A stretch of 60,241 nt of DNA, counting the filler, from Stramenopiles sp. TOSAG23-3 (lineage: Eukaryota), in the NCBI GenBank assembly GCA_900128585.1. It is 6 parts of 6 records of this genome, joined end to end, with 100 filler letters (N's around TTAATTAATTAA, not from the genome) between each part and the next. Parts side by side here need not be neighbours in the genome. Positions count along the whole stretch, not along the records: positions 54,357 to 56,252 come from LT645269.1; 5 more parts are not named here. The stretch is one strand, 5' to 3'. A program made the position numbers and the translations under genes. Of the stretch, positions 1,993 through 56,252 are shown piece after piece; the stretch's first letter is position 1, and every line of letters starts with the position of its first letter. The notes below the pieces were generated by a model. The model was not told the DNA's origin. It did not search any database and was given only the letters and a program-made list of their open reading frames with translations.

Positions 1993-3711
1993 TCAAAGCC
2001 TGGAACGAAAAGACTGAATCGCAGCTGCTTGAACTGGCAGTTCTACATCCTCTAGGTTCCACAGTGCGTCCAAGTTTTGGTCTGCTCGATCAAGCCGTTC
2101 CATGTGTTCGATGGCATTCTTGGGCTCCACCAGAGGCGCGAACAGGTTTTTTGGAACACTGAAGTTAATGCTAGGTATGATGCTCCCGTCAAAGCTGCGA
2201 GCATTTGAAGTGACGACGCCTATCAGCTTGCCCTCGTCGTCCAGTAGCATCCCGCCGCTGTCACCGCGATAGACCCGCGCGGTGGACTGGACTATCGCCG
2301 GCTCCCCGTCGAAGTACGTGACCTTCGACACAACCCCTTTTGACACACTCGGCAGAAACCCAAAGGATGGGTCAAAGATGGCATGCCCGAGGACTATTGC
2401 AGCTTGCCCCGGCAATGTTGGACCGGGCGAGAAGGTTACGGGGTGCAGCATCTCTGGATTCGGAGCCGCTATCTTTACAAGGGCCAGGTCTATCGTGTGA
2501 GTGCAAACATACACAAGCTTCGCCCTTTCCCAGCCTCCCCTGGTGCCCCCCCCACTCTTCACGATGATGCTGTACTCGCGTTTCAGCTTCAGGCTCTTGG
2601 TCAAAAAGGGGACAAACAGGTGGGCACAGGTTAGTATGTACCCACTTTTGTTCAGGACGATGCCGCTGGCCCATGACCTCCCTACCTTGATGCATGACAA
2701 AGACCGATTTGCATGTTCTAGCGCTCTGCGGGACGACTTTACAATCTCGAAACTGTTGTGGTCTCGCGGAATGCTCGAAACGGAATGGGTCGAGGCGCGC
2801 GGAAAGGTTCCCACTGTCGTGTTTCTAGAAACACCGGTCAAAAATTGTCTGTACATTTGGGGGCGACTCGTTCCAACGAAGCCCCTCTGGCGCATTTTCT
2901 TCCAGCACTTTTCGATAGGAAGAACCACGGTCAGCTCAAAACTTTCCTTCCCTGCTCCCTTACGAACGAGGCTGGGGGCGACAAGGCCTACGAGGCGCCC
3001 GTGGACGTCCGAGACCCCCCCTCCCTCACTCCCGGGGTGCAGCACGGAGTCGGTCAAGACCAACGACGGGTCGTCGTTGTTGTCTTCGTAAAATACATTG
3101 CTGACTATTCCACTGGACAAACTGTTTCGAAAGACTTTCGAGGACACCAGGCCGAACGGAGAAGACACTACAACCAAAGGATCGCCGCGGCGCAGTCCCT
3201 GTTCCACAACGTTGACTTGGCGGTGAGCAGGCCATACCAACGACATTGGGTTCCTTATTTTCAGCACGGCAATCGACGCGAAGCCGAGGTCCGACAACCG
3301 GTAGGTATCTCGCTCTAGTAACATTTGGGAAGCCACACGGGTCGCACTCGACAGTTCAAAAATACCCAAGAAATCAGCTTGGTACCAAGCCGGGGTGGTA
3401 GGGTCGAAACGACCGCCTTCTATTTTTCTGCGTTTTCTAGCCTCTTCGTGCTCGTTACTATACAGTTCCGTAGAAATTACAAGGTTCGTCCCCGCAACGA
3501 TCTCCAAAAACGGTGTAACAGTATTCCCAGGTATTAAAACCATCCCGTTACCCAACAGAACCCCTGACGCCGCCAACGTCGTGATTCCTTCATCCACCAA
3601 AACGATTTTTCTACCTTCAGTCCTGCTTTCGTCAGCAGGGCCTTCCACATGAACCAAGCACCCGTCCCACAGCATCGTTAACCTCCGCACGTACCCAACG
3701 GCCCTTGGCAA
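1993..3711 (-). CDS. TYSND1: Peroxisomal leader-peptide processing protease (DEG15/TYSND1), two trypsin-like domains
   Basis: Degenerate first domain (LHPGSEGG). Catalytic second domain (ILTCAH, DLALVK, GDSGG). C-terminal PTS1 -SRL. First ATG is at 3675. Confidence 0.85.
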   Translation of the reverse strand: MPRAVGYVRRLTMLWDGCLVHVEGPADESRTEGRKIVLVDEGITTLAASGVLLGNGMVLIPGNTVTPFLEIVAGTNLVISTELYSNEHEEARKRRKIEGGRFDPTTPAWYQADFLGIFELSSATRVASQMLLERDTYRLSDLGFASIAVLKIRNPMSLVWPAHRQVNVVEQGLRRGDPLVVVSSPFGLVSSKVFRNSLSSGIVSNVFYEDNNDDPSLVLTDSVLHPGSEGGGVSDVHGRLVGLVAPSLVRKGAGKESFELTVVLPIEKCWKKMRQRGFVGTSRPQMYRQFLTGVSRNTTVGTFPRASTHSVSSIPRDHNSFEIVKSSRRALEHANRSLSCIKVGRSWASGIVLNKSGYILTCAHLFVPFLTKSLKLKREYSIIVKSGGGTRGGWERAKLVYVCTHTIDLALVKIAAPNPEMLHPVTFSPGPTLPGQAAIVLGHAIFDPSFGFLPSVSKGVVSKVTYFDGEPAIVQSTARVYRGDSGGMLLDDEGKLIGVVTSNARSFDGSIIPSINFSVPKNLFAPLVEPKNAIEHMERLDRADQNLDALWNLEDVELPVQAAAIQSFRSRL

Positions 3712-4353
3712 ATCAAATCTTTTTCAAGCAACCACTGATTAGAAAGATAAAAGCTTAAATGTGCAACATCAAGTGAAGATGGGACCATTCTCACTGCAAA
3801 ATCTTTCTTCCTTGATTATTAGGATTATTGACAACTTACGAAACGAAAGACCGAATGTTGAATGAACGAACTCAATTAACTGTCCAACTTGATTATTTAA
3901 TAAATTACCAGAGGAGGGGGGGTGGTATGTATTTATACTACCGTACGGTAGAATAGTAATAGCGCTAGAATACTACTCTCTAATAGAACGACTAATAATT
4001 ATCCGGTAAAAAAAATACATATCACAGCATCATCGAATATTAATAATAATATCCAATTATTACATATTGTTCATACAAAGACACAACACTATTATTATTG
4101 ATGTTGTTGATGATGAGCGTGATGACGACGCAGACGACACTAAGAACAAATACGATCGAGGTTTTCTTGCAGTTTTTAGTCCTTCCTAATCATGCCATGG
4201 TCAACGATTTTCGTTTCCAGATAAATGATGTATGATTCAAATGAGAGAGAAGGTGTAGTAGAAAATTTGGCATCGTTCAAGAATCAGGACTTTATAAAAA
4301 CAATTACCCGGGGAGTGAAAACCGTCCAAGAAAGGTTTTAAAAACGGTACAGA

Positions 4354-4716
4354 ATGCCCGCAGATACGGGCAACAGTGACGCAGAGTATCATGAACATAA
4401 GAAAAAAATGAGGCACGAGAAGATTGCGAAACTGTTGGTGCAGCAGCATGCACACACGCGAACAAAAAATGTTTTTGCTAGTAATAAAGTGCCCAAAAAT
4501 TGGTCGGAAAAAGAATTGTTAAGTACAGAAAAACGAGTCCGACGTCGAGATAGCATTCATCACATTGTTACAGAAAAGTTAGAAGAGGAAGGGCCGTTAG
4601 ACGAAGTAGACCCGGTAGATGTAAAAAAAAAAAAGGAGGGCACCCTTGGGAGAGCAATGGCGACAGTCTTTGAACATATTTTCGTGTCGCCAGAAACTTT
4701 CAATGATCTTTCCTGA
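4354..4716 (+). CDS. Hypothetical charged protein, possibly the 5' part of the same gene as 4743-5360
   Basis: ATG-initiated ORF with coding-like composition. No recognisable domain. The join to the next ORF is unresolved. Confidence 0.35.
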   Translation: MPADTGNSDAEYHEHKKKMRHEKIAKLLVQQHAHTRTKNVFASNKVPKNWSEKELLSTEKRVRRRDSIHHIVTEKLEEEGPLDEVDPVDVKKKKEGTLGRAMATVFEHIFVSPETFNDLS

Positions 4717-6507: not shown

Positions 6508-9500
6508 TCAATCGTCAAGTTGGGTCAGCATCGCAACCCCTGCTTGGATCCACGTTGAAGGGTTGCAATTCGTTGGCATGTCTATCATGATAACAAAATT
6601 AGTAGAATGCCCTGTAGTAGATAATGTACCTCTTCGTTCGCTGGTCTTGTAGACAGGGCAAGAATAGACTTGCTTCTGAACCCTGTCAGAACCACGTATC
6701 GGTTTAAACCATATAGCAGGGGCTTCAGAATACAGTTTTTTGGGCTCGGAATATGTAACACATTTCTCGTCAAAGTCCCATTTAGCACCGTCAAAAAATA
6801 GTCCGTAGACGTACGCACCATCTTCTGGACCATCTTTATACTCGTTCCAGGGCTGATCTAGCGGTTCAAAGTCGTATTGCAACGCATCTATTGGGATTGT
6901 GTGTTTTCGTGCATAATTCTGCATTGTACCAGTCAGAAATGCTTGGGTGAAGTAAAATCCAGAAATCCAGAAAGATGGAGGAGCCCCATTGCTGAGCCAC
7001 TCATCAAAGAAATCCAAACGCTTCAAAAAGTCAGCAACGTAACTACCCATTGGGCACAGGGAAGGATAAGAAGCATCTAGCCACATTTTCGGCGTCTTAT
7101 TGTAAAGCAAGCCGTCTGCAACTTCTTCCAATTGTTTCGACATCACTACGACCCCTTTGACTGCCTTCATCACGTTGCTCAGGCTATCGGTAATAACCGC
7201 ATTCAACTTATTGAACCGTTCCAATTCTTGTACCAAAACGGTATTCATACTGTTTTCCCAAGTAATTTTGAACTTCTTTTGGGCAGCATACATATCGTAC
7301 AACGGCTTCATTTTAGCCAACGTTGCTTCTGCTACCATGTAAATCGTTGCTTCCGCAGACACAGTCTCAGCGCCGTCAGATTCGTCATCAGCAGACGCAG
7401 TGGTACCGCTGGTGGCCCGAATATGCAGAAGGGTCGCCAAAGACTTATTTGTTTCCTGTTCATCTTTTGCAATGTTCGCGTTTTCATGCAGGCCAAACAC
7501 TTCTGGTGCCGCGCGCAATGGCAAAGACTGAACATATTCAATAAAGTCCGACATGGACCCATCGGCAGGAGCATAATATATCCCGGACGGGGAAAATACG
7601 GAAGCGTCCCGAAGAATCGATGAATTAAAATAATTTGCAAGAATTGACGTAATTGCTCGGCGATCTTTATCGTCAGTAACACGACCACCATAGTTGCACT
7701 GGCCAATAATGTACTGCAAAGCTTCAAACGGCACCTTTCCATCGCTGTCGGTATCATCCAGAAAGAATCGCAACTGGCGAACACTAATGATAAGATCTGA
7801 TGCTGTAAATTCGTATGGTATGTTCCATCCGATGGGGCCAAATTCACATCGCTCTTGTACAATAGCGTGAAAAAAGCAGAGACCAAACACCATCTTTTTG
7901 AATGATCGCGATTGCAAGCAGCCTTCAAAAAACTCCTGTTGTGAAATTGGTTCCATACTTAGAGATCCAAGGAGATTGGCACGAATACCCTTCGGGGGTT
8001 CATTTGTGAGCTTAACTCCGTTCCTTAAAATTGCGACAGGAAAGTCATTTGAAGGATAAGAAGTGAGCCAGAGCCGAAAATTTTGATGGGTCAACTTCGG
8101 TTGCATATTCTCAACAATTTCGTCCAAGCGAGGCATCCAGCTGGGAAACAAGTGGCAATTCTGAAGAACTACCCACGAGCCTTCAATCATGGCCTCTTTC
8201 ATCATTCTCTCTGCTATTGGACCTTGTCCCTGTCCTAAAGACAAACTATCCAACCGTCGGTTTGAAACAGCAGAAAAAGTCGTTATTGCCCCTATTGGAT
8301 CGGTTCCAGGAGACAGAATGAAGACTAATGGCGTCAGGTTACTTGAGTCTTTAAACGTTGATGCTAAATCGAACGCAGGAGGTTCTGTGTACTTGTCACC
8401 ACGATACGCAGCAACGAATCGAGTCATAGCTGGAACTAATCGATCGGGACGAATACATCGAAGCAAGCACAGGAATTGGAATGGCGTCACAAGCCCACTT
8501 CCCCATAGTCCAGGTGCCTCCATCGTTTCTGGGGTCAATGCATCGTACATTTCCCTCCACTCGAGCTGAAGGTCGACAAAAGTTTCACTCAGGTCTTCTT
8601 CAACACCACTTTTTTTCAACAAGTTTGATAGATAGCATATATCTCGCCAGCTACCGACTCGCAACCACTCTGGGCAAGGATTTTCGGGCAAAGAGTCGTC
8701 CCCTCCAGCAGTGCTTCCGGCAAGCAGAAATTGCTCTTCTAAATCTGTTATTCTTGTTACCTTTTCTCCACGTAAGGCATGCATTTTGACCGTTTTTCTT
8801 TTCTGTTTCGGCTTAACTGTTCGTGGCAGTCGAACAGGGGCTGGCTCACCATTGGCTTCTGCTTCCAAATCTTCAGCCGCCTGTCTCTCCTCCTCTTCTT
8901 CACGCATTTTTTGCTCTAGTTCTCTGCGCATTTTTTCTGCCTTCGCAGCTTCGATTGCATCGTACAAATTTTTGACAATCTTCGTAGTCAAAAGAAAGGA
9001 GAACAGCAACTTGTCCTTTTCAAACAATGACTGACACACATTTCGGTAAATCGCATACGTAAAGTATTCGTTTAACTTGAATATTCGCTCTCGTATGTTC
9101 TTGCTCTGTTCACTGTCAGCAATACTTGTGACAAACTGGTTGTTGAACCACGTCAATGAATATTGGTACATTGGTTCCACGACGGATAATGATGATACAA
9201 CGAAAAACAAGATAGTCGACCGCACGGCAACAGGGATATATACTTCTCGGGCCAAGTCAATGCGGACCTCTGTTTGCTCTGCAATCGTCTGTTTCTCTGA
9301 AATTTCATCTGAAATTGTTTTGGACACAGTTAGCACATCGATAGCCGCAGAATCTTCTAAAATGTTCCCCTCTGAAGATGACAATATGTGTAAAATCTTA
9401 TCCTCAATCTCTTTCAACTTTCTCTTGTTTTCTGCACCCTCAATAATAAGTTGGTTTTTCTGCTCCTCCAGCTCTGGTTTTTCTTTTGCCACAACGATAC

Positions 9501-12500
9501 CCAACAGTTGGTCTTGAAGCCCCTCTGCCGTTATCATAAAATTAATAATGGTAACTTTGACACTTGTTTCAGGCAAATAGTGGGGATTGGCAAGCATTGT
9601 GGTCATGAAAAACCTAAATTTTTCCGAGTATTCAACGGTTTTGTCTCCCAATCGCAAACAGTTCACGCCGCCACTTTTGAAAACTTGCCGGAGCAACAAA
9701 GGTTCTAGCGACGCATCTAAAGATTCTCCAATGTTTTCAAGCAAGACAGGGTGTCCAAATTGAATGGCAGCTTCAAGAGTTCTCAAATAATTTTCTTCAG
9801 ACAATTTAATTACTTTCAGCTGGTTCTCCTTTTCCAAGTTACGAATCCACTTGTTTGCTTGGCCCTGTGGGTCTATCATCAAGGGCCAACGGCTTGATTG
9901 ACTCATAATTAAACCATTTTCGACCGAGAAGCTATCGACCGGTAACCCAGAGATGTTCCAGCTTCTAATTTTAACTGGATCACCAATTGTCGACACCAAA
10001 CTATACCCCTTTTCTCCTTCAGTAGAATAGGAAATGTTTAGTATGTCCATTTGCTGAAGCCAATTTTTGGTTATTTTTTGTCTGAATGCAGCTGTAAAAG
10101 CGCCAGAATAAGCGATTGACGCTGAAGCAATCAGCATATCCCCAACTACACGACCGAGCTGTTCACCGAGATCAATAGCATATTGCTTCCATCTGGCCTT
10201 TTCACCACCCAGGCCTCCAAGTAATTTTTCTGCTCTGTCAATTTTTTCTACACAAAGCCTCGCATTTTCTTCCAGGTCTTCCTTCTTCTGTTCCATTCGC
10301 TTTAGTTCTTGGTCGAGTGCGTCTAGTTTATCCTCAACTGCTTGTAGTTCTGCTTGTTTTAGCCGAAGACCTTTCATGACAACCTCAAGATCATCTTCTG
10401 CTTGCTTCAACGCAATTTTTTTTGGCTTAACAACTTTTGCCACACGATCGTACGACACCATTGCCCTGACCCAGCAGCATAAACCGTGGGCTGCTACTGA
10501 AGCCTTTTTTACAACGTCCGGCATAAACTCAGGTTTAGCAACGAATGGTTTTACTTTGTTGACTATTTTCTCTTCAATATTATCTTTATCGTAGTCGATC
10601 AAACGCTGAAGAAATTTGGTATCTCCGAGTAACTCCTTCTTTGCAGGCTCCCAGTAGTCCCATTGGACCTTCCCTCGATCGTCCCTGGACTTGTTCGGCT
10701 TGACTCCCATCATGTGGCATACGGCTTCCATGGTCAGCAGAACTCCTGCTGGCGGGCTTTTCATTGCCTTAACTTCAGTAATATCATTCTTACTTAAAGT
10801 ATTCAGGGCTTTCAGCGCTTTTTCAAGAATAGGCATGGCCTCAGCAAGGTCCGCCTCGCACTCAGATTTTATCGCTTGCGCTCCTTTCGCTTGCTCTGCC
10901 GCTTTTGCTTCATCTGCCGCGACAGTTTCCCGTATCACTTGAGCATCAGCAGTCTCTTTTTCTACTACAATCATCATCTCCGCAGTTTCTTTTGCTGTCT
11001 GTATTAGTTGTGGTTGCAACTCTTCGAGTTCTTCTTGCATTATCCCAACAGATTTTTCGGTTGTTTCGATCTTTTCCAATCCGACTTCATACCGCATTTT
11101 TGCGGACGAAACTTCGTTGTTTTTCCAGAGAAGCATTTCTTTAAAGGTAGTGATAAGGGATAAGTACGACGTTGGAGTCACATGATAGTGCCGTTTTAGT
11201 TGCTTCAGAAACAATGCTGACATTGTAACAGTGCTGCTATGAAAATGCATACACATCTGTACGGCACTGTTTTTTTCGTCAATTTGTGAGTCTTGCAAAA
11301 AGCTATTTGCGGTTGCCATAAGTGCGTCGTCCGGCCATACACTAAACCAATCAATCGTACAGCAATTGACAAGAGAAGGAAATTTCCGCAATCTCTCTCG
11401 AAAAGTGTCACCAATAGGACTAAATGCCAACACGACATGCAAATATCGTTTAATACGGTCAACAAAATATCCATAGAAGTCTTCTGTAGTTTGAAGATCT
11501 TTTCGCTTTTCTTTGGCCGCTGCTTTCCTTACAAGCTCCATAATTGCGCCAAGCTCGTCCGCTGCATATATATTTGGAACGTCTCCAGTGTTTAACAGAC
11601 TCGAAATATTCTCCACAAAGGTTTCATCAGTTATTTGTGTGTCACTCAACAGGAAGACGCTAGGTTGTCCTTCTCCACCAGCTGCAATCATTACGCTTTT
11701 CAAATCTTCTTGAAATTCTCCTACACCATAGCCCTTAGAAATTTCAATTTGTTTCAGTTCGTAATCACCAATAAAAGCGGCCAGCCTCGTCAAACTCTGT
11801 CTACCACTACCTCCTACACCTACAAGCAAAGCATGCCCACCAGGAGTTTTAAGAACACGCGAAATACGTGCAGTGTGTTCAACAGCAAACATAAACATGA
11901 CAAGATTCATTGGTTTTGTACTCATTGCATTGTAGTCATCTAAATAGGCCGTCATTACCCCCATGACGCTTTCTGCATCTACAGGAACTTCATCATACAA
12001 ACTTGACGCCGCTTTCGGGTTCATGAAATCCCCGTAAATAATTTGCCTAGATTCGTCAATGGTGTTTACTTTCCCGTCTTTGTTAATATCGTACATTTTA
12101 AGGCATTTGTCAAAATTACCACCAGTGGCAGCACTTAAATGTCTGTCAGCGGAAGTCCGAGCCATTTCTAAAAGTTTTGTCCTGTCCTCATCATTGACTA
12201 AACGATCGCTAAAAACTCGAAGTACTTCATGAGTCCACAACCTGGTAATTTTATTTTTGTCTTTTCCAAATTCTTTTGGACCAACCATTGTCATGCCAAA
12301 AATTACACGGGCAAAGTCGCGCAAATTGAAGGTATAGTGAGATTTGGAGGGTGTTGGGAGCAAAGAGGACATTGCAGAATCGTAAATGTGAGACGTTGCC
12401 TTCACAATTGGCCAAGCAGCTGCTTTCAGTTCTTGGGCATAACCATTTCCTAAGTGCCAATCCATTATAGTTCCAAATATCCGTTCCATAACGGAAGAAG

Positions 12501-15500
12501 ACAATGGAGTCATTCCAAACACTTGGAATCTAGTCAATATTCTGGGGGTTATGTGATTCCGACCGCCTCCAGGGGGGCCCATTGCTGATATAAACATTGT
12601 GTCTACGATGTTTCTGAAGGCGCTAGTCTTGCTGTCATACCATCCGCCATCGGTTATCGCTTGCCGAATGAGCTCAAGCGGGGGCTGGGCGCCATATGTT
12701 TCTACCATCGGCATGTTTAGATCGTCAATAAATATAATACATCTTTTATTAACTGGGGGACCATAAACATTTTTTCGTCGTTTATCAAGTTTGCTGTCAA
12801 TAATACTTTGCGTTGCTGCTGAGCTGGTCTGCGCCGAAAATCCGAGCGAGATGACTTTGAATTTTGATCTATCAAGATCCTTCATTATTTTAGCATTTAC
12901 GTAAATCGTTTTGCCGGTTCCAGTTGGACCAACGAATAACAAATGTTCCTGATGATCAATAGCACGGTTCAACAAGTAAGTGTAACGGACGGTATCAATT
13001 GTTGGAATTACAATTTCCGACACACGGGCAGTTTTCGGTATTTCAAATTTTTTGTCAATCAAATCTTGCCATTGTTGCCATTTCCCTTGGTCACTTTTAT
13101 CCCAAACACAGTCAAATACGCTCCCTTGACGGGGAAGCGGAGTGTGGATTTTTCTTTGCCGGGGATAACTCGCGTTTTCTCCCTTGATAAGAGAACGAAT
13201 AAAAGAATCAAACTTCTCTCTTCCAGCTGCATTGAGGATTCCACCAAAAGACCAGACAATAGAAAATATAACAATAGATTCGATCCAACTATTTACTTTT
13301 TTCTGATCCAACCTTTCTGTCACATTATCTTCTCTGGACGAGTCGAATTCGTCCATAAGATTCGCTGCCAACGACATTACAGTTTGGACAAGCATTGTGT
13401 GTTCCATTGGCACCATCAACTTGCCTTTCTGCACACGAAATATAAAATGTATACATGGAGGAATTAACCATGTAAACATTTGCTTCAGTACCTTCCGAAA
13501 GCCCTCATCTTTCGAAAGAAAGGCCGGCAGGGTATTCATCCATGAGACTAAGCGAGTTTCCATTCCAATATTTTCGGGCTCCAGATATACCATACCACAT
13601 CGACTCACAGTTGCCGGGCTAGCAGCGTCTAAGTCGAGAGTTTCAAAAATCATACTCATAGTCTCATTCATTTGAAGCATTTCTCCGGTCATCAAGCATA
13701 ACTTTTTATTATCGTCCAACACAGTGTTCATGTTTTCAATCCAGATGGCATCCACAGGACCATCAAAAAGAGTCCATTTTCTAGTTGCTTTTGTACTGGA
13801 GGCGAAAGCACGGTAGTAAATAGCTAAAACACCATCTGACCATTCATGAGTAATATCATCGAAGCAACCATACAGACGATCCATACTAATAGATTTTGGA
13901 TTTATCGTGGTTATCTCCGTTTCTAGCTCATGTTGGGGGTTAAGGGAGCAAGGCATTTTTCCTCGTTTGCACAAATCATTTAAACTTGAAGCGAGCACCT
14001 TCAGGCATGCTGTTTTCCCCCCTGATGCTTTCCCAACGATCATGAACCCATGGCGCACAACCATCATTTCATAAGTTTGAATAATTTTTTCAATAAATGC
14101 TTCGTCAGGCTGCAAATTTCTTGCCGCAATATTTTCATTTATGGATTCCATTAAGTCTGTATAATCAGGCGTAGGGAGCTGCACTCCAGGAAAAAGATCG
14201 GAAGTAATACCTGCAAACAGATCCAAATCTTGACTTAAGAATTTAGCTTTGTTCACATCGTTAATTGCTCGAAGAGCCACTACGTCTTCGCTTTCATCTG
14301 GAAATGGCCCGCAGCACAGACATGACCGCCCTCATACCATAATCGTAGTGGCTTTGTGAACTTAGCTGTTCAGAGCACAAAGTAAAAGTGGTAACAATTT
14401 TTGTGGCAAGGTCTCTCGAATTTCTAAATCCAAACGAGTAGAGGATAATTTCTGCAATCATAGCATAATCTGGAACCATCATTGCGACGGTTCGGAACAA
14501 TGATTTTAAGTTATCTGGTAATTCAGCACGCCCTGCGTACCCTGGGTTCATTGTGATAAAAACGTTGCAGGTCCACTTTAAAGTCAGTTCTGTTCCATAA
14601 AAGACAAACGAATTTTTTTTTGCGGCGACAGCCTGTTGAATTGTAGTAATTTGCTGAGCAACAACAGACAATACCTCTAGTACGATTCGGTTAAACTCGT
14701 CAAAACAAGCCCAGGCACCTGCTGATGCAAGCCCCTTAAAAAATTTAGCCATCGCAAGGTAATCCAAACCATCGGAACAATTGTAAACCACACACTGTCT
14801 AGCTAAAGCTTTTGACAAATCTTTTGTGGTTTCGGTTTTTCCAGTACCCGCCGGCCCTTCAGGAGCACCTCCATATTGCAAGTGTATTGCTCCCATCAGT
14901 GTCCGATAACAGCGGTCGGTCAGTGGGGTAATCACGAGTCTCCCAGAATTTCCTAAATATTCATAGCCGTATTCTAAATCGGAGACGATCATCCTGACAT
15001 GCAAGGTTCCCTCTTCCCAATAGTAACGTAGTTGACTTTGCCACCCAAAATCACTCGTTTTACCGACCTTTTGATCCCTAAGTATTGCTACAGTATCACG
15101 AGCATGCACATCCATAATGATCAAAGCAGACAGAGTTTTTCTGAGCATTTTTGTTAGTTTTCCCCGCACTAGATCTACAATATCATCAATATACCCAGTA
15201 AGTGTCTCTGTGTAATCAGATAGACTTTTGGCTCCATTCTCTTTGACTCCCTCTTCAAAGTACCTTGTCCAATAAAGTTGGCTGACGCATAGAACGACCT
15301 GACCAGGCCAATTTTGCACCCACTCAATACGTTCCTTCTGAGGGTAGTCTTCGATCCCCTTTTCGACGACATGTCGTACTGTTAACCGCATTACATCTTC
15401 GAGTTGCAAAAGCCATTTTTCAACAGCACCCTGTGCTTCAGCAGGGCTGACAGACTGTATCAGAGCAACCTCTTCTTTCTCTGCGGAGCCCATAGCTATA

Positions 15501-18088
15501 ACGTTGCCGTCCTCATTAAATTTAATGCTGTTCAAACCATCAAAACACTTTTTCAAGAACGGTTGAACCTTCGTCGGGTCTTTCGTTTCTGCAAGAATTT
15601 CTAAAAGCTCATCGTCACTAAGGAAGAAGAATCGTGGAAAGTGAATTCGTTTCACCATCAAATAATCACTCAGTCCTTTTTGTATAGTTTCTAAGAGTGA
15701 ATTGGCCTCTTCTAAGCGTTGAAGCAAACCATCGATTTTGTATACCTTTCGGCATCCAGGAGATTCATTGATTTGGTTCATCGTCAGTCTCCAACCACCA
15801 TCAACAGTGGAAAACTGTTCAGCTTCTTCCGGCATTTGGCGCACAATGTCTTCGGAGGTAAATATAGGCTCAAGGTATAACCAAGTTCCTTGAACCTGGA
15901 GCCACGCCTCCAGCAAACTGTCCATATACATTAAGTATTTTTCCCACTCCTTCATATCTTTTGCAAAAGGTTTGGCAAACTGAGAGCTTGACATTGTCTG
16001 CGTTTTCATTATTTGATCGTCAAGTATCATTTGAACTTCATCTATGGACGATCCTGTGACAATGTATGCCCCCGTATCTTTGTATGCTTTCGAACCGAAC
16101 TCGACACCCTCCCATTCTTCTTTCATTTTTTTCATGTTCTTTTCAATGGAAGATTCTTTTGTTGCAGATTCAGCACAGACCATAAGTTGCTTGACGTGTT
16201 TGTCAATGCCTTGGCCGAGTAGCTTTGAGAATGACGTGTGATCGTCGGGGGTTAAGGTAAAACCAATGACCGCACTCATCGCAGACCAATGCCTTGTCCT
16301 CAAGCCGGTATTGCATATTGCCGAAAGCAAATCGTAGTACTCTTTGAATGAAGAAACTCTTTCAAAAATTTCAGAGGCCAGTTTGGCGCACTTTTCCGAA
16401 TCTTCACTGAGGCTCTTAGATAGTTTTCTTACAGTTCGCCAAATGTCGTCCGCATCCTTTACAGTCTCTTCGTAGCTGAGATGATATATGGGTCCTTTCA
16501 TCCACTTTGCATAACTTCGTTGAAAACGACTCGCTGTTGACCATAGCAATAAATATGGCTCCAAAATCAACGACGCCTCTTCTAAAGTCGGGAACGAACT
16601 TGCCGAGAAGCCCAAACGCTCCTCCTCTTCGTTGATAGCAACCGCCTTTGCTTCGTAAGTGGCCACACGCGTCTTGAATTCTTCAACCTTTGCGTGCATT
16701 TCCCCAGCAGCTTTTATTGCTCCCGTGCGTGTGTCAACAAATCCACCCTGCTTATATAGCTCACTAACCTCATCGTGCAATTCTTGTACCTGATCTACGA
16801 ACGTGTTTCGCTCATCATTGAATTTCTCCTCCAATTTTTTCCTATCGTCTGCAATATCTACACGGGCCAGTTTAATGTGTTTACGAATATCTCTTCCCCA
16901 TGCAAATATGGCCCCAGCAGGAAACAGTACTGCTTCATCTACATCGTATTTATATTCGTACATGAAATCAACTTTGTCTTTTACAGCTCTGATTGCTTTC
17001 TTCTTTTGTGGCAAAGTTTCTTTGCTTAACTTTTTCATGTATGCCTCCGCATCTACAAGTTGATCCGACTTTCCCGACCTTTTATTTATAATTTCAACAA
17101 TTTCTTTGAACTCGTCCTTAATTCTAATGGAATCTTTTACGGTTTCGTGAGCTAGATGTTTCAACACTCGCTGGGCAAGGGTTTCGGATGTGCGATAGAG
17201 ATATGCATTTAGCACTGTGCAGTCAAGGCGCACCATGCGGGTGCAAGTAATGCCTTTCAACTTTTCATTCAGGGATTGCCCCATCTGTCTGTACTTTGCA
17301 ATTTCCACTCCGTACTCCTCTATTGTATGTTTTGCTTCAAAATATTTTTTCAGCTTTGGCCTATCGTTGATCAAAAAGTTGAACTCGTCGTAACATGAAA
17401 GAAAAGATTCTAGCGGTTCCATCGAGGTCGTTAGAACTTCGTTCAATCGGTGCCGCATGGCTCCGACGTCATGATCGTCCAGGTTAACGGTCATTAAGTC
17501 CATATTGGACTCAAAATTTAAAGACCCGATTCTGTGCTCTACCCTAGTTAGGCTATTTAAGCTTCGTGCCATGGTATCAAAAATGTCCAAGAGTTTCGTA
17601 TGGATTTCATCCCGCGATGTTTTAAATCGGAGGAAGGAATCTCTTGCGGGGGGTCTCTCAATGGCTTCAAAATACTCACTCTCTTCCTCACTTTCGTATT
17701 CACCATCAGGGTGTTCGACTATTACTTCTAGAAGCAGCGCACATCGCTGTTCAGCAGTTTCATCTGTTGAATATACAAACTCTTGCTCGCTGCTCGCTTG
17801 CTGCAAATCCACGGCAAATCGTTCAAAAAAGCTGACAAACAACTGAAGAGATTCTACAACTAATTCTCGCGCTTTTGTGGACATCAGAGTTGCAACCGAG
17901 TTAAAAAAACGCTTCAAGGTAATTTCAGGAACATTCACAAACATTCCATTCTTGTCTGCTTCTTGGAAAATTTCAATTACTTGCGGCATCCACTCGTCCA
18001 TAATTGTAGTCTTTACCAAGTTAATCCTTTGGAACTGAATGGTTGAAAATTCTTCTATCGTCATGGGCCGCCATTCCTGACTCTGGGC
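6508..18088 (-). CDS. Axonemal inner-arm dynein heavy chain (DNAH3/7/12-like), 5'-truncated by the contig edge, frameshifted at ~14305
   Basis: P-loops GPAGTGKT (AAA1), GKASGGKT, GPTGTGKT and GVGGSGRQS. Also CFDEFNR, WIENMNTVLDDNKKLCL, stalk/MTBD and C-terminal [23 protein letters not shown]. ORFs 14294-18064 and 6508-14280 are consecutive parts of one protein. Confidence 0.95.
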
Positions 18089-28148: not shown

Positions 28149-29759
28149 TTAGTTTGACCCTTTGCATCTCAAAATGCCGCAGGGCTGTTTCAAACAACCC
28201 CATTGATCTTTCTCTTCGTTGAGTTCACGCTCGCACCCTTCCTTGAGCTCGTTCAACGGCGGGCATTTGATGGTGGGGCACTTGGCTGCTGCTCCTGTAA
28301 TTGCAATCCCCGCCCTCCCCCCCGTACTACTCCGCCCGCCCGTCGCCCCGGTGGAAAACACGTTCCGGGCTTCGGCATCTTCTAATTGCTCAGCTTCCGG
28401 GCCACTGGCCCCACTATCTTCGTCTTCCTCGTCCTTTTTCGTTTTATTCTCGGCCGAGCGCGCCAAGGTCACCTCCTCGTCTTCCATCATGTTTTTAAAG
28501 CCCTCGGGCAACGGCTTCTGGTTCTTGCTGTACTTGGGGTCGCCTAGTCGACACAAGTGGTAGCTTTTGTGCGCGTCCGCGGCGGCCTTACTAATGACGC
28601 CGCAGTACTGCTCGGTGGACTTGAGCTTGTCCAAATGCGGCTGCACCGCTTTCTTCATCTTCCCCAACTGCGTGTTCTCCGCTTTCCTCAACGCTTCCAC
28701 CGAGGCGTCCTTGGTGACCTTGGCGTCCCGGGTGGCGTTTTGCGCCGCATGGCAACCCTTTCTAGCGTGGCGCAAGGCGCGCAGTATGCCTGGCCCCGCA
28801 ACCTCGGCATGTTCGGCTTGCATTTCAAACTTGCCCCACTTCTCGTCGGCCTGGCTCTTCGCTTTCAACGCACGGTGGACGTCTTTCTCCAACCCCTCGA
28901 TGTCCATCCCTTTACTAATGTACCACTTTTCCCCAGACGACAAGGCTCCCATTTGGGCGTTCGTCAGGTGCTCCTTCGCGGCCGACAAGGTCTTTGTCGC
29001 CTTGGCCGCGACCGTCTTTGCCTTGTCCGCGTACGCCTCTAGGGTCAGGATGGGGCCCGCCATGTGCTCCCAATGGGCCTTCTTCAGGCACGCGTCCTTC
29101 TCCGCTTCGACGGCCTCCTCGTACTCCTGCACGGCCACCGAGTGGTTCTTGACCTTCTCGTCGGAGACGCCCAGCCCCCCCGTGAACCAGGCCTCGAACG
29201 GCGAGAGTTTCGTGGTTTTCCTTATCTTGGCCTCGATGTTCTCCGCCGCTTTGTCGCACAAGCTTTCCTTCTCCATGGCCTCCTTCCACGCAAAATAGTC
29301 CGACGCGCACCTGTGCTTGGAGAGGCACTGCCAGCGGTGGTACCCCTCCGGGATGTGCTCCACGTCCTCCGGTAGGTACGGCTTTGACACCATCCCGTGC
29401 TTCTCGTCGAAGCACTCGTAATCACCCGCGGTGACCATGACGACGCCGGCGTGGTCCGCCGAGAGGTTCGGGGTCATCCGCTCCCGAAGGCAGGAAGTCG
29501 TCGGGCAGACCAGGAACATTTCTGGCATAGGCTTGTGGCGCTTCATTCGCTGCTGTTCGTGGCCGTTTCCAAAGTCCTGGCGCATCCCCGTTATGCTGTG
29601 GGGGGCGGGCATGCCTAGCAACGGGGCCAGGGGCTTACCCAGGTCCGTCGCGTTGCCGTCGCCGCGGCGGGAGGCGCGTAGCCGGGAGGCACGCGCACTA
29701 ACAAAAACTATGGCTAACAAGATAGCCGCAAACGTGGCGGCAGCGCTCTGGAGTTTCAT
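28149..29759 (-). CDS. Secreted hypothetical protein (signal peptide, helical repeats, Cys-rich C-terminal module)
   Basis: MKLQSAAATFAAILLAIVFVSARA signal peptide, A/K/E coiled coil, and C-terminal CPTIKCPP...GC...D.WGC....CGILRC. Confidence 0.75.
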   Translation of the reverse strand: MKLQSAAATFAAILLAIVFVSARASRLRASRRGDGNATDLGKPLAPLLGMPAPHSITGMRQDFGNGHEQQRMKRHKPMPEMFLVCPTTSCLRERMTPNLSADHAGVVMVTAGDYECFDEKHGMVSKPYLPEDVEHIPEGYHRWQCLSKHRCASDYFAWKEAMEKESLCDKAAENIEAKIRKTTKLSPFEAWFTGGLGVSDEKVKNHSVAVQEYEEAVEAEKDACLKKAHWEHMAGPILTLEAYADKAKTVAAKATKTLSAAKEHLTNAQMGALSSGEKWYISKGMDIEGLEKDVHRALKAKSQADEKWGKFEMQAEHAEVAGPGILRALRHARKGCHAAQNATRDAKVTKDASVEALRKAENTQLGKMKKAVQPHLDKLKSTEQYCGVISKAAADAHKSYHLCRLGDPKYSKNQKPLPEGFKNMMEDEEVTLARSAENKTKKDEEDEDSGASGPEAEQLEDAEARNVFSTGATGGRSSTGGRAGIAITGAAAKCPTIKCPPLNELKEGCERELNEEKDQWGCLKQPCGILRCKGSN

Positions 29760-50975: not shown

Positions 50976-51982
50976 ATCTACAGCGCAGCGTAGTGCGGTT
51001 TGAAATGTTTGAACAAAAGTTTTACTGCTCTTCTGTTTTCGCTTTGTTATTTTAAACAATGGTGATAGAGAATGCTCAATTCTGAATTCTGATCGAAATA
51101 AGAAGTCGACAATTTAAAACTAAAATTATTAGTCTATGCATTGATAATAATATTATACATGTATTTACGTATGTATTAATATTTCCCCAATCAACTTCAA
51201 AAATACGGTGTAATAAATAATTGTTGCCTCTTCTTCTTCTTCTTCTAAATTTTTTCTAGTTAATAAAGCTAATTAATAATCCATTTAAAAAAAGAAGAAC
51301 GAACGTAAGATAATAAAACATTAAAAACAAATTAAAAAAATGACAATACGATCCTCCACGCTACACGCTGTAGTATTATAATAATAATAGACTAGTCAGT
51401 TCTAAGTAAATAAAATAATAATTTAATTTAATAATAATAGAGTAGTAGGCGGTGGTCTACGAACGCAATTGAAGTAAACTAATATAAACCTCGATTCATT
51501 CAATGCTGTGTATATATTTTTCTTCGGTCGGAGAGAGTCGTAAAGAAACGAAGAAAAAATAAAAAAGGCGAAGAACGACGACAGAAGACGACATTTTTTG
51601 GAGGAAGAAAAAAAAAAGAACAAACAAAAAAACTTTTCAATCGATCATCATGATATCATCATATATTATAATTATATTAGTCGTCTAATATTCGCGTCGT
51701 CTGAATAATAATAATAAAACATCATCACCATCTCATACTTGGTAATAAATCTTGTTTTTATCTGATATCGTAGATGACAATGAAGGAGAATAGATTCTGA
51801 AACAATTCGAGGGAATGGCGAAGAATGTTATAATGTGCCGGATGCAAAGAATATTGATCATACAACATTTTATTTAATAAAATCGGTCGATATTTGCCTG
51901 CGTGCCCCATAGAGTTTTCAATAAAAGTTTGCCTGGTCTTCCATTGTTTTTCAACTAAGCCTGTAACGTGGTAGCCCTCCCG

Positions 51983-53266
51983 ATGTCCAAAGTAACGTTC
52001 GACGCCGGTGGCACGGCAACCGTGCGCCTCCACAAGCGCGAGCGCGGCTCTTACTTCGGTCACCCTGGCATCTGCACCGTGACTTTTTGCCATGGCGATC
52101 CGAAGACCACCCACGCCGCCCTCAAAACTAAGTTTCTGGAGGTGCTCCGTTCCAACCCCTGGATCGGCGGGCGCTTTGACAAAAATAAAGACCTCGTCTT
52201 CAAGAACACCGACATCTCGGACACAGACGTGAACGAGATTTTAGTCCCAGTCCGCAAGAACGCCGCGGTCAACCGTGCTCAGCCGTACCCCGCACTCGTT
52301 TCTGCTGTCGCTAAGGACGCGAGCATGTCCGTGGTGCAGGGGAACAAGCTGCTAAAGTCCGCAGGTTGCATTACCAAGTGCGTCGTGGTCGAGCCCGAGC
52401 AGCCCGGGGGTGAGTTCGTGATCGTGTTCTCGATGTCTCACGCCGCCGCGGATGGACATGATTACTACCGCATTCTCAACATGGTATGCGGAACTGATCC
52501 CGTAGAGGCCATGAACCCGAAGCGAGTCGAAGAGTACGAAACACGAGAGCCTGAGTGGACTGGCAAGAAGGATTTCAAGTTTCTCTCCGGCGGGGGTCTG
52601 ATGAAGGGCATGCTCACCGGGATGTGTTGCGGTCCAAAGGCCCAGTGGTGTTGCTATACGGTGGACGATGCCAAGGTCGCTGCCGCAAAGGAGAAAAGCG
52701 TGGCCGGGGCCGCGAAGATCGGAGCGAAGGGCGTCGAATACGTCTCCACGAACGATGTGCTGACGTCCCACTTTTGCCGCGCGACTGCGGCCCGCGTGTG
52801 CATGATGGTAATCAACTTTCGGGGCAAGATTCCCGGGCTCCCGCTCACCGAAGCAAACTCCGGGTGCTACGAGGGGTGCCTTCTCCTGGACCCTGAGAAC
52901 TACGCCGACCCCGCCTTCGTTCGAATGTCGCTGAACGCTGGTCTGCCGTACACCAGGCAAATGCCCTCGCCGAAGCTTCCCGGCTGCTGTGGCAGCTGCC
53001 CAATGGCGTTTATCACGAGCTGGGCGAACGGCGCCGTGGGAGGGGGCCGGTTCGACGCATGCAACGTCGAGGGTGTGGAGAAGCAGAATTTGCATCTCCC
53101 GTGTATGGATATGCCGGACATGATGGACGTCGCTATAGTGTTCAAGCCGACGCCGGACAAGTACGGTGTGATCTACTTGGCGAAGCGGGCCAAACCCGAC
53201 GTCCTCTTCGGGGAGGGCACGGTTCTCGGGGAGCCCCTGGGCGGCATGCTGTTCCCTTTGCTCTGA
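51983..53266 (+). CDS. CoA-dependent acyltransferase superfamily protein (HxxxD)
   Basis: NPWIGGR, FSMSHAAADG, VSTNDVLTSHF, INFR and FITSW motifs. Confidence 0.72.
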   Translation: MSKVTFDAGGTATVRLHKRERGSYFGHPGICTVTFCHGDPKTTHAALKTKFLEVLRSNPWIGGRFDKNKDLVFKNTDISDTDVNEILVPVRKNAAVNRAQPYPALVSAVAKDASMSVVQGNKLLKSAGCITKCVVVEPEQPGGEFVIVFSMSHAAADGHDYYRILNMVCGTDPVEAMNPKRVEEYETREPEWTGKKDFKFLSGGGLMKGMLTGMCCGPKAQWCCYTVDDAKVAAAKEKSVAGAAKIGAKGVEYVSTNDVLTSHFCRATAARVCMMVINFRGKIPGLPLTEANSGCYEGCLLLDPENYADPAFVRMSLNAGLPYTRQMPSPKLPGCCGSCPMAFITSWANGAVGGGRFDACNVEGVEKQNLHLPCMDMPDMMDVAIVFKPTPDKYGVIYLAKRAKPDVLFGEGTVLGEPLGGMLFPLL

Positions 53267-54356: not shown

Positions 54357-54595
54357 TAATATTAAATATAGACTATGATGTTTTAAACTTTTACTACTAC
54401 TACTACTAATCACATTGTTCTTCAACAATTATTGGTTTTCTCTACTAGTAAAAAACAAAGAAACATTTTTCAGTACTACGGAAAATCAATTATTTGCTGT
54501 TGCTTGTAGATTTTATATTCAATTATTAGTAGATTATATAGAGTAACCGTTTTAAAAGTAGAACCGTGGTCCGAAAATAGAGTTGTTTAGAAGCG

Positions 54596-55447
54596 ATGGT
54601 TTCCATACGTTGTTTGGCTCTGAAACTGTATTCTTGGGCAGCTGTGCTTTGTTTTCTCCTGGTAGAGAGCAACGTTGGTGTGTTCGCGTCCCTTACATAC
54701 GACGGTCCCAGGAGACTCGGGTGGAAAGTGCCTACTAAGATCATCGACGATCCTAATCGTGGGTTTGTGCGTGTGCCAGATCCGTCCAAACGTCGCCCAA
54801 TATGGAGTTCCGACAGCCCCGACCCATACGCCCAGAAACCGCTTGACGGGCACGACTCACGGTACTCAAAAGGTCACAGTCGACCTTACTTCCTTCCCCC
54901 GTTGAACGACGAGGTTCAACAAGAGGATTACCGTGATGTGTACGATGATGAGTCAACCGATATGTTAGATGACGATATGCTGGATGTCATGGAGGATGCT
55001 TACGATACGCAAGGTGGTCCCAAAATACGAAAAAAGCGCAAACGCACAAAGTATTTGAAACGTAGCGTAAGCGATGCGATTGCTTGGGCCACGCGACAAA
55101 TACGAAGGCCAAGCCAATCCTGGTACAAATTGTGCCAATCATTTGTTCGCCAAGCCTACGGCGTTCCCGGTTGGGCCGATAGCGCGCAGCTCGCTTGGGA
55201 CAAGATTCCAAATCACAAAAAAACGATCGGCGGGAGCCCTTTTAGTGCACCAAGGGGCGCAGCTTTGTATTACAGCGGGGGGGAATTTGGGCACGTAGCA
55301 TTGGCCACCCGCACCAAATGCCTGTCGAATGACTACAGAAGGTCAGGAAAAATCAATTTTGCGCCTAGAAATTTTCCAAAATGGAATCAGAAATACTTGG
55401 GGTGGAGCATGTGGACGCCATTCGGGGAGATGAGGCCATACTCTTAA
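54596..55447 (+). CDS. Secreted protein with a C-terminal CHAP/NlpC-P60-like cysteine peptidoglycan hydrolase domain
   Basis: N-terminal hydrophobic signal and acidic linker, then AIAWA...W..LCQSFVRQAYG...SA..AW...APRGA.LYY.GG.FGHVALA...YLGW with a Cys/His dyad. Confidence 0.75.
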   Translation: MVSIRCLALKLYSWAAVLCFLLVESNVGVFASLTYDGPRRLGWKVPTKIIDDPNRGFVRVPDPSKRRPIWSSDSPDPYAQKPLDGHDSRYSKGHSRPYFLPPLNDEVQQEDYRDVYDDESTDMLDDDMLDVMEDAYDTQGGPKIRKKRKRTKYLKRSVSDAIAWATRQIRRPSQSWYKLCQSFVRQAYGVPGWADSAQLAWDKIPNHKKTIGGSPFSAPRGAALYYSGGEFGHVALATRTKCLSNDYRRSGKINFAPRNFPKWNQKYLGWSMWTPFGEMRPYS

Positions 55448-56008
55448 TTTCTGAAGAAGACCACAAAAATGTATGTGTGTGTGTGTGCATAAAATACTGT
55501 GTGTATTTTTTAAAGAAACTTTTTTAATTTCTAAATAACGGTACGGGAAAAAGGAAATATGATGGAAAAAAATAAAACCAGCGCGAAGTAATAGTTCAAA
55601 CGCGCTCCTCAGAAAAATCGGAATCATCATCCCCATTTTAAATAGTTTGGTTTTAACATAAACACAGCATTAATATTATTACAATGTATATAATCGCCTT
55701 AAAACAGTGCTAGGATAATGTATTTATTTGTATTCTTATAGACACTACTATAAGAAAGACTAAATATTCTTCTTTTTTCTCCATTTTTTAAGGCTTTATA
55801 TAACTTCTACGGTCTCTCATTCCTATAATATTTATACCTATAATTTGGAATAATACGCACGTCGTACGTCGTAGTACCGATTGATTTTATTTATTCATCA
55901 GCAGGTTAATAAGGGAAGAAAGGGACCGAAGAACGGTTGGATTGATCATCCGGTATGGGATTTTTTGTGAATACACCCGTACGTACTTCTTCTTAATGTA
56001 AAAAAACC

Positions 56009-56252
56009 ATGTTCGGTTTACAAAGTAATAAGTCCAAAGGTATCGGTACTCTCACTCAAAATTTGAGCAGTCACGATTTCCTCGGCGGAAAGGCTGGAGG
56101 AGGCCTAGGTAAGAGAGTGATGGCCGGAAGAAAGTTTCGTTTTGAAATAATCAAGCAGTCGACCAAAAGCAGGGCCAGGGTTGGCCGGATCGTCACGCCG
56201 CACGGGTCGATCAAAACGCCAGCCTTCGTCCCAGTAGGAACAAATGGGGTAT
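56009..56252 (+). CDS. tgt: Queuine tRNA-ribosyltransferase (TGT), N-terminal fragment
   Basis: FRFEII..STKSRARVGRIVTPHGSIKTPAFVPVGT; cut by the contig end. Confidence 0.85.

Follow-up and report, generated by a model that had tools for sequence, protein, structure and literature searches.

The window analysed here is a stretch of 60,241 nucleotides from Stramenopiles sp. TOSAG23-3 (GCA_900128585.1), in which seven contigs are joined by N..TTAATTAATTAA..N spacers. The sixth contig (54357..56252, 1,896 bp, 42% GC) carries an open reading frame (ORF) for a lysin-like protein of 283 amino acids (aa). The evidence taken together makes it likely that this is an intron-less, transcribed nuclear gene of a protist, derived from a phage endolysin and equipped with a secretion leader, and that its product serves to lyse bacteria. 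The features of the gene and its product are as follows.

54510..55511, plus strand: transcript, with a 5′ untranslated region (UTR) of about 86 nt, the ORF and a 3′ UTR of about 64 nt; the RNA contigs are colinear with the DNA
54596..55447, plus strand: lysin-like pre-pro-protein ORF, complete, with an ATG start and 283 aa followed by a stop
54596..54694, plus strand: signal-peptide-like segment, about aa 1–33, with a basic n-region, a hydrophobic core at aa 13–23 and the small residues VFA/S
54695..55039, plus strand: eukaryote-specific pro-region, aa 34–148, with a hairpin, a disordered Pro-rich part, a QEDYRDVY motif and an acidic run
55040..55444, plus strand: catalytic domain, aa 149–283 (135 aa), of papain-like NlpC/P60-CHAP fold, beginning with the basic KRTKYLKR
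55133..55135, plus strand: codon of C180, which opens helix 180–187 and is the predicted nucleophile; invariant in 105 of 105 and in 21 of 21 aligned sequences
55292..55294, plus strand: codon of H233, which opens strand 233–237 and is the predicted general base; invariant in 105 of 105 and in 21 of 21
55331..55333, plus strand: codon of D246, the predicted third residue of the triad, in an S-N-D-Y motif; invariant in 105 of 105 and in 21 of 21

The Gene and Its Transcript

Upstream, the reading frame is closed by a TAG 15 nt before the start codon, and reading of the sequence finds no ATG between the 5′ ends of the RNA contigs (54510–54564) and 54596. The GC content is about 50% within the ORF, compared with 27% and 32% in the flanks. 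The identical 283-aa protein (P0160) is recorded on 14 contigs, the contigs recorded with the exact protein being up to 30,102 bp long, and the locus L055 matches the ORF at 100% identity over residues 1–283.

The stretch containing the gene is present in 20 runs from 13 studies dating from 2014 to 2025, all of them marine or seawater where labelled. Six of these runs are RNA libraries, including three that are poly(A)-selected. Four runs were compared letter by letter with the contig, namely three RNA runs from three studies (two of them poly(A)-selected) and one DNA run. One RNA contig spans 54510–55511 (X16, 1002 nt), while contigs from the poly(A) libraries span 54564–55460 (X18) and 54532–54851 together with 54835–55460 (X15). 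Over the lysin gene, these contigs contain 0 differing letters and 0 joints. The RNA contigs are colinear with the DNA, and the gene is therefore without an intron. The RNA runs leave 54357–54509 and 55512–56084 uncovered, and coverage resumes from 56085 within the neighbouring gene, TGT (queuine tRNA-ribosyltransferase); this is a weak hint that the uncovered intervals mark the transcript ends. The spacer between the two genes is covered by the DNA run from 55687 onward. The transcript of the lysin gene is thus monocistronic and free of introns, and its UTRs are short.

The noncoding parts of the locus show two further details. A (TG)n microsatellite occupies 55461–55496 in the 3′ UTR; two of the three RNA contigs end there, and it was skipped as a repeat in the read comparison. 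At 55906, in the AT-rich DNA that separates the lysin gene from TGT, a contig from an independent marine metagenome carries a 3-nt TAA insertion. This insertion is a population polymorphism of the spacer, and the lysin gene itself has no differences in the RNA contigs.

The Catalytic Domain

The initial annotation had described an ORF at 54596..55447 with an intact Cys motif and an intact His motif, and both are found as described: LCQSFVRQAYG at aa 179–189 and GHVALA at aa 232–237. The YLGW motif said to end the protein is also there (aa 267–270), but 13 further residues follow it, so that it is near-terminal. The conservation of these regions was assessed in an alignment of 105 sequences, comprising the window domain, the orthologues P0002 and P0003, and 102 relatives of at most 260 aa that cover at least 100 domain residues. 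Four domain positions, Cys32, Ala49, His85 and Asp98, are invariant in all 105 sequences and correspond to C180, A197, H233 and D246 of the ORF. All the invariant residues of the phage lysins are retained in the window protein.

An AlphaFold2 model of aa 149–283 built on this alignment has a predicted local distance difference test score (pLDDT) of 96.8 and a predicted template modelling score of 0.91. In the models the arrangement is papain-like, with C180 opening a helix and H233 opening a later strand. The role of D246 as the third triad residue is predicted from its position, 13 residues past the His and at the end of the next strand (242–246).

Comparison with known structures points to the same superfamily. 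When the alignment profile was compared with the PDB, all ten matches at E ≤ 1 (0.007–0.76) were peptidoglycan hydrolases, the proteins matched being PcsB, CwlO, SagA, Cg1735, RipB and MAP1204. C180 aligns with the Cys of CSSFVR in CwlO, and H233 with the His of GHV in PcsB and CwlO. A Foldseek comparison with the PDB gave only NlpC/P60 and CHAP proteins as top matches, the best being E. coli Spr (1.8e-3). The whole ORF had no match among PDB sequences. In a Pfam scan of the 105 members at E ≤ 0.1, CHAP was found in 44 (best 1.6e-6), NLPC_P60 in 11 (best 1.3e-5) and PG_binding_1 in 13 (best 7.7e-12). By fold, profile and triad, the domain is a member of the NlpC/P60-CHAP superfamily, as had been proposed, but by threshold it falls outside both Pfam families. 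The window protein ends directly after the catalytic domain and has no wall-binding module.

Regions Preceding the Domain

The N-terminus contains R5 and K10, followed by an 11-residue core, SWAAVLCFLLV, with a mean Kyte–Doolittle hydropathy of 2.45. The full-length model places a helix at aa 4–27 of this segment. The orthologues start with MGLKFN-VVLFILCAVLYTSTASA, which is more clearly signal-like than the start of the window protein, while phage homologues have no signal-like N-terminus and reach a maximum hydropathy of about 0.4. From the two basic residues, the hydrophobic core and the starts of the orthologues, the segment reads as a putative signal peptide. The initial annotation had proposed a signal peptide and an acidic linker. 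The acidic run is present, whereas the signal peptide, recognised from its features, is putative.

Between this segment and the domain lies the pro-region. It contains a conserved hairpin at aa 47–61 (VPTKIIDDPNRGFVRV), for which pLDDT in the full-length model rises to 89, and a stretch at aa 67–122 where pLDDT below 50 in the same model indicates disorder. The acidic run at aa 105–138 has 16 D/E per 34 residues, and a basic stretch with 10 K/R per 18 residues follows it at aa 139–156. The hairpin pattern VPTxxI..GFxRVPxPS, the QEDYRDVY motif and the acidic run are kept in all six eukaryotic sequences aligned; among these sequences, the KIRKKRKR cluster that precedes the domain occurs in the window species only. 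With 18 K/R versus 6 D/E, the mature domain itself is basic.

No relatives of the pro-region were found beyond the eukaryotic clade. A word-based search with aa 30–148 returned only the protein itself, although this search covers proteins of 155–496 aa and is consequently weak evidence. The idea that the pro-region arose from the short extension at the N-terminus of certain phage proteins (the P0006/L001 type) is not supported, BLASTP giving E values of 1.4–6 only.

Relatives in Phages and Actinomycetota

Full-length homologues of the protein reach an E value of 2e-80. An exhaustive HMMER search with aa 149–283 returned 580 representative relatives with a cut-off of E ≤ 1e-3, of which 120 also passed 1e-10 and 6 passed 1e-30, and the strength of these matches is far beyond chance. 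The close relatives (50–63% identity) are of two kinds. The first consists of three clusters of 264–283-aa proteins in which a signal-like start and a conserved N-terminal part precede the domain. Proteins of the second kind are 130–230 aa long and begin with the domain from the first residues; many have a C-terminal tail that weakly matches PG_binding_1, and in the 220-aa forms this module is located C-terminally. The same lysin domain is also found near the C-terminus of some very long proteins (P0083, P0134, P0136, P0152 and P0156; 2,093–2,513 aa), which may be tape-measure or virion-associated lysins or conjugation proteins.

The genomic surroundings of the relatives were explored by a locus scan seeded with a 21-sequence alignment, the 105-sequence alignment being too diverse for this purpose. 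Scanning one genome per prokaryotic species gave a single locus (L001), at 60% identity, on a 17.5-kb contig of an Actinomycetota metagenome-assembled genome (MAG). The order of genes there is a 783-aa ORF, tail-type proteins, two small ORFs, of which the second is a holin (phrog_443, E 6.9e-17), and the lysin homologue; the 783-aa ORF reads as tape-measure-like and is without a PHROG match. In IMG/VR, relatives with 39–64% identity are encoded on 53 viral contigs, and the GC content is 55–71% in 52 of these 53 loci.

Four viral contigs and the MAG contig were scanned with PHROG. L009 encodes a tape measure protein, a minor tail protein, a holin (phrog_443, E 3.3e-22) directly upstream, and the lysin. 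L039 has tail fibres upstream of the lysin homologue, and in L003 and L030 terminase or portal genes lie downstream of it. A holin beside the lysin homologue was thus seen in two of the five loci and was absent from the PHROG scans of L003, L030 and L039. L039 also encodes, at 3409–4515 (+), a beta-1,4-glycosyltransferase (phrog_13126, E 7.7e-109), situated between collagen-like tail fibres and the lysin homologue.

Structural databases give a similar picture. The best match in BFVD is an uncultured Caudovirales CHAP domain-containing protein, A0A6J5PPE7 (E 2.7e-18, template modelling (TM) score 0.95, 52% identity), and models of Microbacterium phage Min1 and Arthrobacter phage lysin A proteins are found among the lower-ranked matches. 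In the ESM Atlas, the nearest clusters are 97–100% Viruses/Uroviricota, and the farther ones are bacterial, commonly Actinomycetota. A bacterial-type member of the family, P0037, matched 16 cultured-phage records at 28–35% identity; 12 are from Arthrobacter phages and 3 from Microbacterium phages, and some are annotated as lysin A or peptidase. The immediate donors look like uncultured phages. The initial annotation had named Actinobacteria and their phages as the source. Kinship with phages is borne out, while the label ‘actinobacterial’ is to be read with the caveat that it derives from one MAG, high GC content and distant Arthrobacter and Microbacterium phage relatives.

Phylogeny

A quick IQ-TREE phylogeny was calculated from 220 domain rows, reduced to 196 by removing the duplicates of the window sequence (P0001, P0160, P0161 and L055), any row in which fewer than 105 residues were aligned, and rows identical to another. 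All eight rows from eukaryotes group together, with a Shimodaira–Hasegawa approximate likelihood ratio test value of 97. Their clade lies within one of 56 rows (support 89), in which the MAG and 32 viral contigs are the only other rows with a label, and the 56-row clade in turn lies within an 86-row clade (94) with further viral contigs. For a more careful tree, 81 rows were used: 69 hand-picked from the 86-row clade after thinning of near-duplicates, and 12 outgroup rows. Here the eukaryotic clade has a support of 98/99 and is placed within a 65-row clade (94/87), where it is joined by the MAG, by 25 rows of viral origin and by 33 metagenome proteins that have no label. The bootstrap of this tree was incompletely settled, and its outgroup is non-monophyletic, 4 of the 12 rows falling inside. 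The presence of one eukaryotic clade nested among phage-type sequences implies that the domain was probably acquired once, before the two eukaryotic lineages split.

This nesting of the domain among phage and Actinomycetota sequences is what the initial annotation had predicted. Nor does the domain group with a vertically inherited eukaryotic family, an outcome that would have spoken against that annotation. No LRAT-type protein, as expected for LRAT/PLAAT-type membership, occurs among the 50 structural matches listed, an absence that is not proof. Among the top 159 placeable relatives there are 2 eukaryotic clusters, the rest being phage-like or bacteria-like.

Residence in a Eukaryotic Genome

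The neighbour of the lysin gene on the same contig is a cellular gene, interrupted by the end of the contig:

56009..56252, plus strand: start of TGT (queuine tRNA-ribosyltransferase), cut at the contig end; PF01702, E 3.8e-6, 26.6 bits against a cut-off of 26.3

RNA and DNA contigs of three runs extend past 56252 with identical letters, one DNA-run contig reaching about 1.3 kb beyond the end of the lysin contig. The contigs continue beyond 56252, and the TGT gene is therefore cut merely by the assembly. Ahead of its conserved core, the TGT protein has an N-terminal extension of about 50 aa.

An orthologue of the lysin gene is found in a second setting of this type. The 2,911-bp record L056 encodes a 268-aa orthologue with 78% domain identity, convergent with a 448-aa gene of the CTP_transf_1 (cytidylyltransferase) family (PF01148, E 1.3e-54). 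To judge from its length and motifs, the latter is presumably a eukaryote-type CDP-diacylglycerol synthase. The intergenic spacer has a GC content of 14–20%, and the GC content at third codon positions (GC3) is 0.29 in the orthologue and 0.28 in its neighbour. In the window, the lysin gene has a GC3 of 0.53, within the range of 0.28–0.79 of twenty ORFs on the other contigs, while GC3 is 0.66–0.82 in five of six phage homologues sampled. The values of 0.53 and 0.29 in the two eukaryotic DNA copies imply that silent sites are saturated. In both records, linkage to eukaryotic genes extends over 1.9–2.9 kb only.

A EukProt gene model from the genome of the orthologue, P0165 (407 aa), joins an unnamed 178-aa protein to the lysin orthologue and skips the signal peptide of the lysin. 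The 178-aa partner has no Pfam match and is called ‘carboxylesterase’ by one source; the model is probably a mis-predicted fusion of two adjoining genes.

The other contigs of the window encode a dynein heavy chain, a gamma-tubulin complex component and neurochondrin. The dynein heavy chain gene (6508–18064, −) consists of two long ORFs, 14294–18064 and 6508–14280, separated by 13 nt; the break is either a very short intron, a frameshift or an assembly error, and the gene is otherwise markedly intron-poor. Two further ORFs, at 51968–53266 (+) and 28149–29759 (−), encode 432 and 536 aa, have a GC3 of 0.77–0.78 and have no Pfam match at E ≤ 1e-5.

By its linkage, its host-like composition and its transcription in poly(A) libraries, the lysin gene is resident in a eukaryotic genome. 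The leader and pro-region common to the six aligned eukaryotic sequences but missing from phage forms, together with the eukaryotic genes on the other contigs, point the same way. The initial annotation had relied on AT-rich spacers for a host-like contig and had suggested a search for poly(A) RNA; the spacers are joined by a host-like GC3 and the TGT neighbour, and the transcript was found in poly(A) libraries.

Proposed Function and Alternative Explanations

The following sequence of events would account for the observations. The catalytic part would descend from an endolysin carried by a lineage of tailed phages, most likely ones that infect high-GC Actinomycetota. After the transfer, the C-terminal peptidoglycan-binding module of the phage form would have been lost, unless it was never present, an N-terminal signal peptide and a pro-region of about 115 aa with its conserved hairpin and acidic run would have been gained, and codon usage would have drifted toward that of each host. 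The leader is predicted to take the product into the endoplasmic reticulum and a secretory or endomembrane route. There, the product would be a pro-enzyme in which Cys180, His233 and Asp246 cut peptide or amide bonds of the stem peptides of peptidoglycan; the function of the signal peptide, the localisation and the bond cut are predictions from sequence. Bacteria would be lysed in the food vacuole, as part of prey digestion, or outside the cell, as a defence, and such a use of the lysin against bacteria is what the evidence suggests. An enzyme without a wall-binding module would suit a high local concentration in the food vacuole, or walls exposed from outside.

A more specific and rather speculative version of this mechanism, which probably goes too far, can also be formulated. 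An actinophage endolysin might have been taken up by small bacterivorous protists of the sea and have become a zymogen-like digestive enzyme, whose acidic pro-piece silences the cationic lysin until it reaches the food vacuole, where it would open cells of the Gram-positive type of the Actinomycetota. Actinomycetota cells resist digestion by flagellates. If this version were true, the specificity of phage lysins would shape which bacteria marine grazers can digest.

Several results weigh against the proposed origin and assignment. At the level of the domain, the window sequence stays below the threshold of CHAP (PF05257; 14.1 bits, E 0.066, against 26) and does not reach that of NLPC_P60 (PF00877), for which the window protein gave no match. 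The whole ORF has no Pfam family at E ≤ 1 and no NCBIfam match, PHROGs gave only a 16-residue match at chance level (E 0.31), and Foldseek gave no PDB match at E ≤ 1e-3. As regards the source, neither the window domain nor its close relative P0013 had a tblastn match in 50,697 cultured-phage records. The domain occurs in 7 of 301 sampled genomes of the phylum of the MAG, a count based on at most 12 candidates scored per genome and on that phylum only. Its distribution there is sporadic and mobile-looking, and restriction to the phylum cannot be shown from it. The viral labels come from a scan seeded by motifs of the lysin family itself, which biases the sampling towards near relatives. The clade that encloses the eukaryotic one has a support of 89 in the quick tree and of 94/87 in the careful tree, and carries no star. 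A polytomy inside it leaves the sister group unresolved, and the donor is therefore not pinned down. Finally, the lysin contig is only 1.9 kb long, and the RNA evidence consists of assembled contigs, not raw reads, and no poly(A) tail was seen in these contigs.

Two explanations place the gene outside the chromosome of the protist. Contamination, in which phage or bacterial DNA, for example from ingested prey, was co-assembled with the protist, would be favoured by the seemingly very small amount of data behind the assembly (16 million letters), as foreign DNA often turns up in such sets, and by the fact that the nearest relatives are phage genes. It is effectively excluded by the composition of the contig, with 42% GC and spacers of 27–32% compared with 55–71% in 52 of 53 viral loci, by the monocistronic transcript in poly(A)-selected libraries, and by the signal-like N-terminus and long pro-region, which the phage forms lack. 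Moreover, the nearest phage form has about 60% amino-acid identity, whereas the orthologue with 78% domain identity lies in another AT-rich, eukaryote-like contig. A second possibility is that the contig derives from a large DNA virus or a mobile element of the protist. In large DNA viruses, the spacers are AT-rich, transcripts are polyadenylated, and genes resembling those of bacteria or phages are numerous; an intron-less gene flanked by AT-rich DNA on a 1.9-kb contig would fit such a genome, and poly(A) RNA is compatible with a eukaryotic virus. Synteny is also lacking, since the neighbour is TGT here, compared with the cytidylyltransferase in L056 and the unnamed ‘carboxylesterase’ protein in the gene model. 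A viral rather than chromosomal location is nevertheless unlikely, and the chance of it seems slim: TGT and the cytidylyltransferase are ordinary cellular housekeeping genes, and composition and GC3 match those of the contigs with dynein and the gamma-tubulin complex protein. The occurrence in 20 runs from 13 studies fits a widespread organism, though a widespread virus would also be possible.

The remaining alternative accepts a eukaryotic, phage-derived gene but assigns it another job, such as the control of bacterial associates on the surface or within the cell, the remodelling of peptidoglycan in an endosymbiont or plastid, or the cleavage of an amide outside peptidoglycan, a type of reaction known from glutathionylspermidine amidase and other enzymes of CHAP fold. 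This has a modest chance of being correct. The Foldseek matches include the CHAP-fold glutathionylspermidine amidase of E. coli, and the loss of a wall-binding module could fit a new substrate. The predicted cleavage region of the orthologues reads ASA-F or ARA-SW, and an aromatic residue at position +1 typifies the plastid-targeting signals of algae with complex plastids, which these sites resemble. On the other hand, the region after the signal is acidic, unlike a transit peptide. The nearest relatives are lysis-cassette genes of phages, with holins as neighbours, the invariant residues of phage lysins are all retained, and the ten PDB profile matches are, without exception, wall hydrolases. 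An endolysin-derived protist enzyme that lyses bacteria remains the favoured explanation.

Comparison with Known Systems

Bacterivorous protists turn over much of the bacterial production of the ocean. The gene described here would add to their repertoire a predicted wall hydrolase of the peptidase or amidase type that is expressed in the field. It offers a clean, testable case of the predicted transfer of an antibacterial enzyme from phage to eukaryote. The lysin family as a whole, with 580 representative clusters, no curated model and no close cultured-phage representative, is an uncharacterised endolysin family worth study in its own right. Keyword searches of the open-access literature, which were non-exhaustive, turned up no description of the family in any protist.

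Compared with the phage endolysins (A0A6J5PPE7, L002–L054 and L001 of the MAG), the window protein belongs to the same domain family, with 39–64% identity, a TM score of 0.95 and the invariant residues in common. The phage proteins are 130–230 aa long, have no signal peptide and in many cases carry PG_binding_1, and they are encoded in high-GC genomes, in cassettes that adjoin a holin in two of five loci. In contrast, the product of the window gene begins with a leader of eukaryotic type and a pro-region, and the gene stands in an AT-rich, monocistronic context beside TGT. It descends from endolysins but is not itself one, having neither a phage lysis cassette nor a wall-binding module. Gene 51 (‘lysin A’) of Microbacterium phages Smarties and Ariadne and gene 11 (‘peptidase’) of Arthrobacter phage Qui are distant members of the wider domain family. 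The 16 records of which they are part are the only cultured-phage relatives that were found; fifteen of the 16 are from phages of Actinomycetota, and the identity of 28–35% refers to P0037, not to the window domain.

Transfers of bacterial or phage wall-degrading enzymes to eukaryotes are known from other enzyme families and donors. The tick and other ‘dae’ genes reportedly derive from type VI amidase effectors. GH25 muramidases are described across domains in the consulted text of PMC4241558, and phage lysozymes in bivalves in that of PMC5303276. In the sections of PMC6299479 consulted, candidate transfers of NlpC/P60 genes are listed for fungi, mites and Acanthamoeba, and the NlpC/P60 proteins of Trichomonas vaginalis are described as laterally acquired enzymes that degrade peptidoglycan. 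The Trichomonas proteins NlpC_A1 and NlpC_A2 (PDB 6bim and 6biq) share 8% sequence identity with the window protein. According to the same sections of PMC6299479, they pass the Pfam NlpC/P60 model and have two bacterial SH3 domains and a Cys-His-His triad, whereas the window protein fails Pfam, lacks a wall-binding domain, has a predicted Cys-His-Asp triad and belongs to a phage-lysin clade. The window lysin is an acquisition independent of that in Trichomonas, in a free-living marine organism.

The closest functional parallel is offered by marine bacterivores themselves. As far as the consulted parts of PMC8237690 go, the known tools of protists for wall degradation are mostly glycosidase lysozymes, and the GH22, GH23 and GH24 lysozymes of MAST-4 are highly expressed peptidoglycan-degrading digestive enzymes. 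In the available text of PMC8237690 and PMC8163842, NlpC/P60 is absent: ‘NlpC’ has 0 occurrences, and the single word beginning with ‘chap’, in PMC8237690, is ‘chaperones’. The MAST-4 lysozymes are glycosidases that act on the glycan strand, whereas the window lysin is a predicted cysteine peptidase or amidase that would act on the peptide part, with presumably the same role. The window lysin adds a well-documented instance to a phenomenon that is already known; it overturns nothing, and comparable transfers have already been documented.

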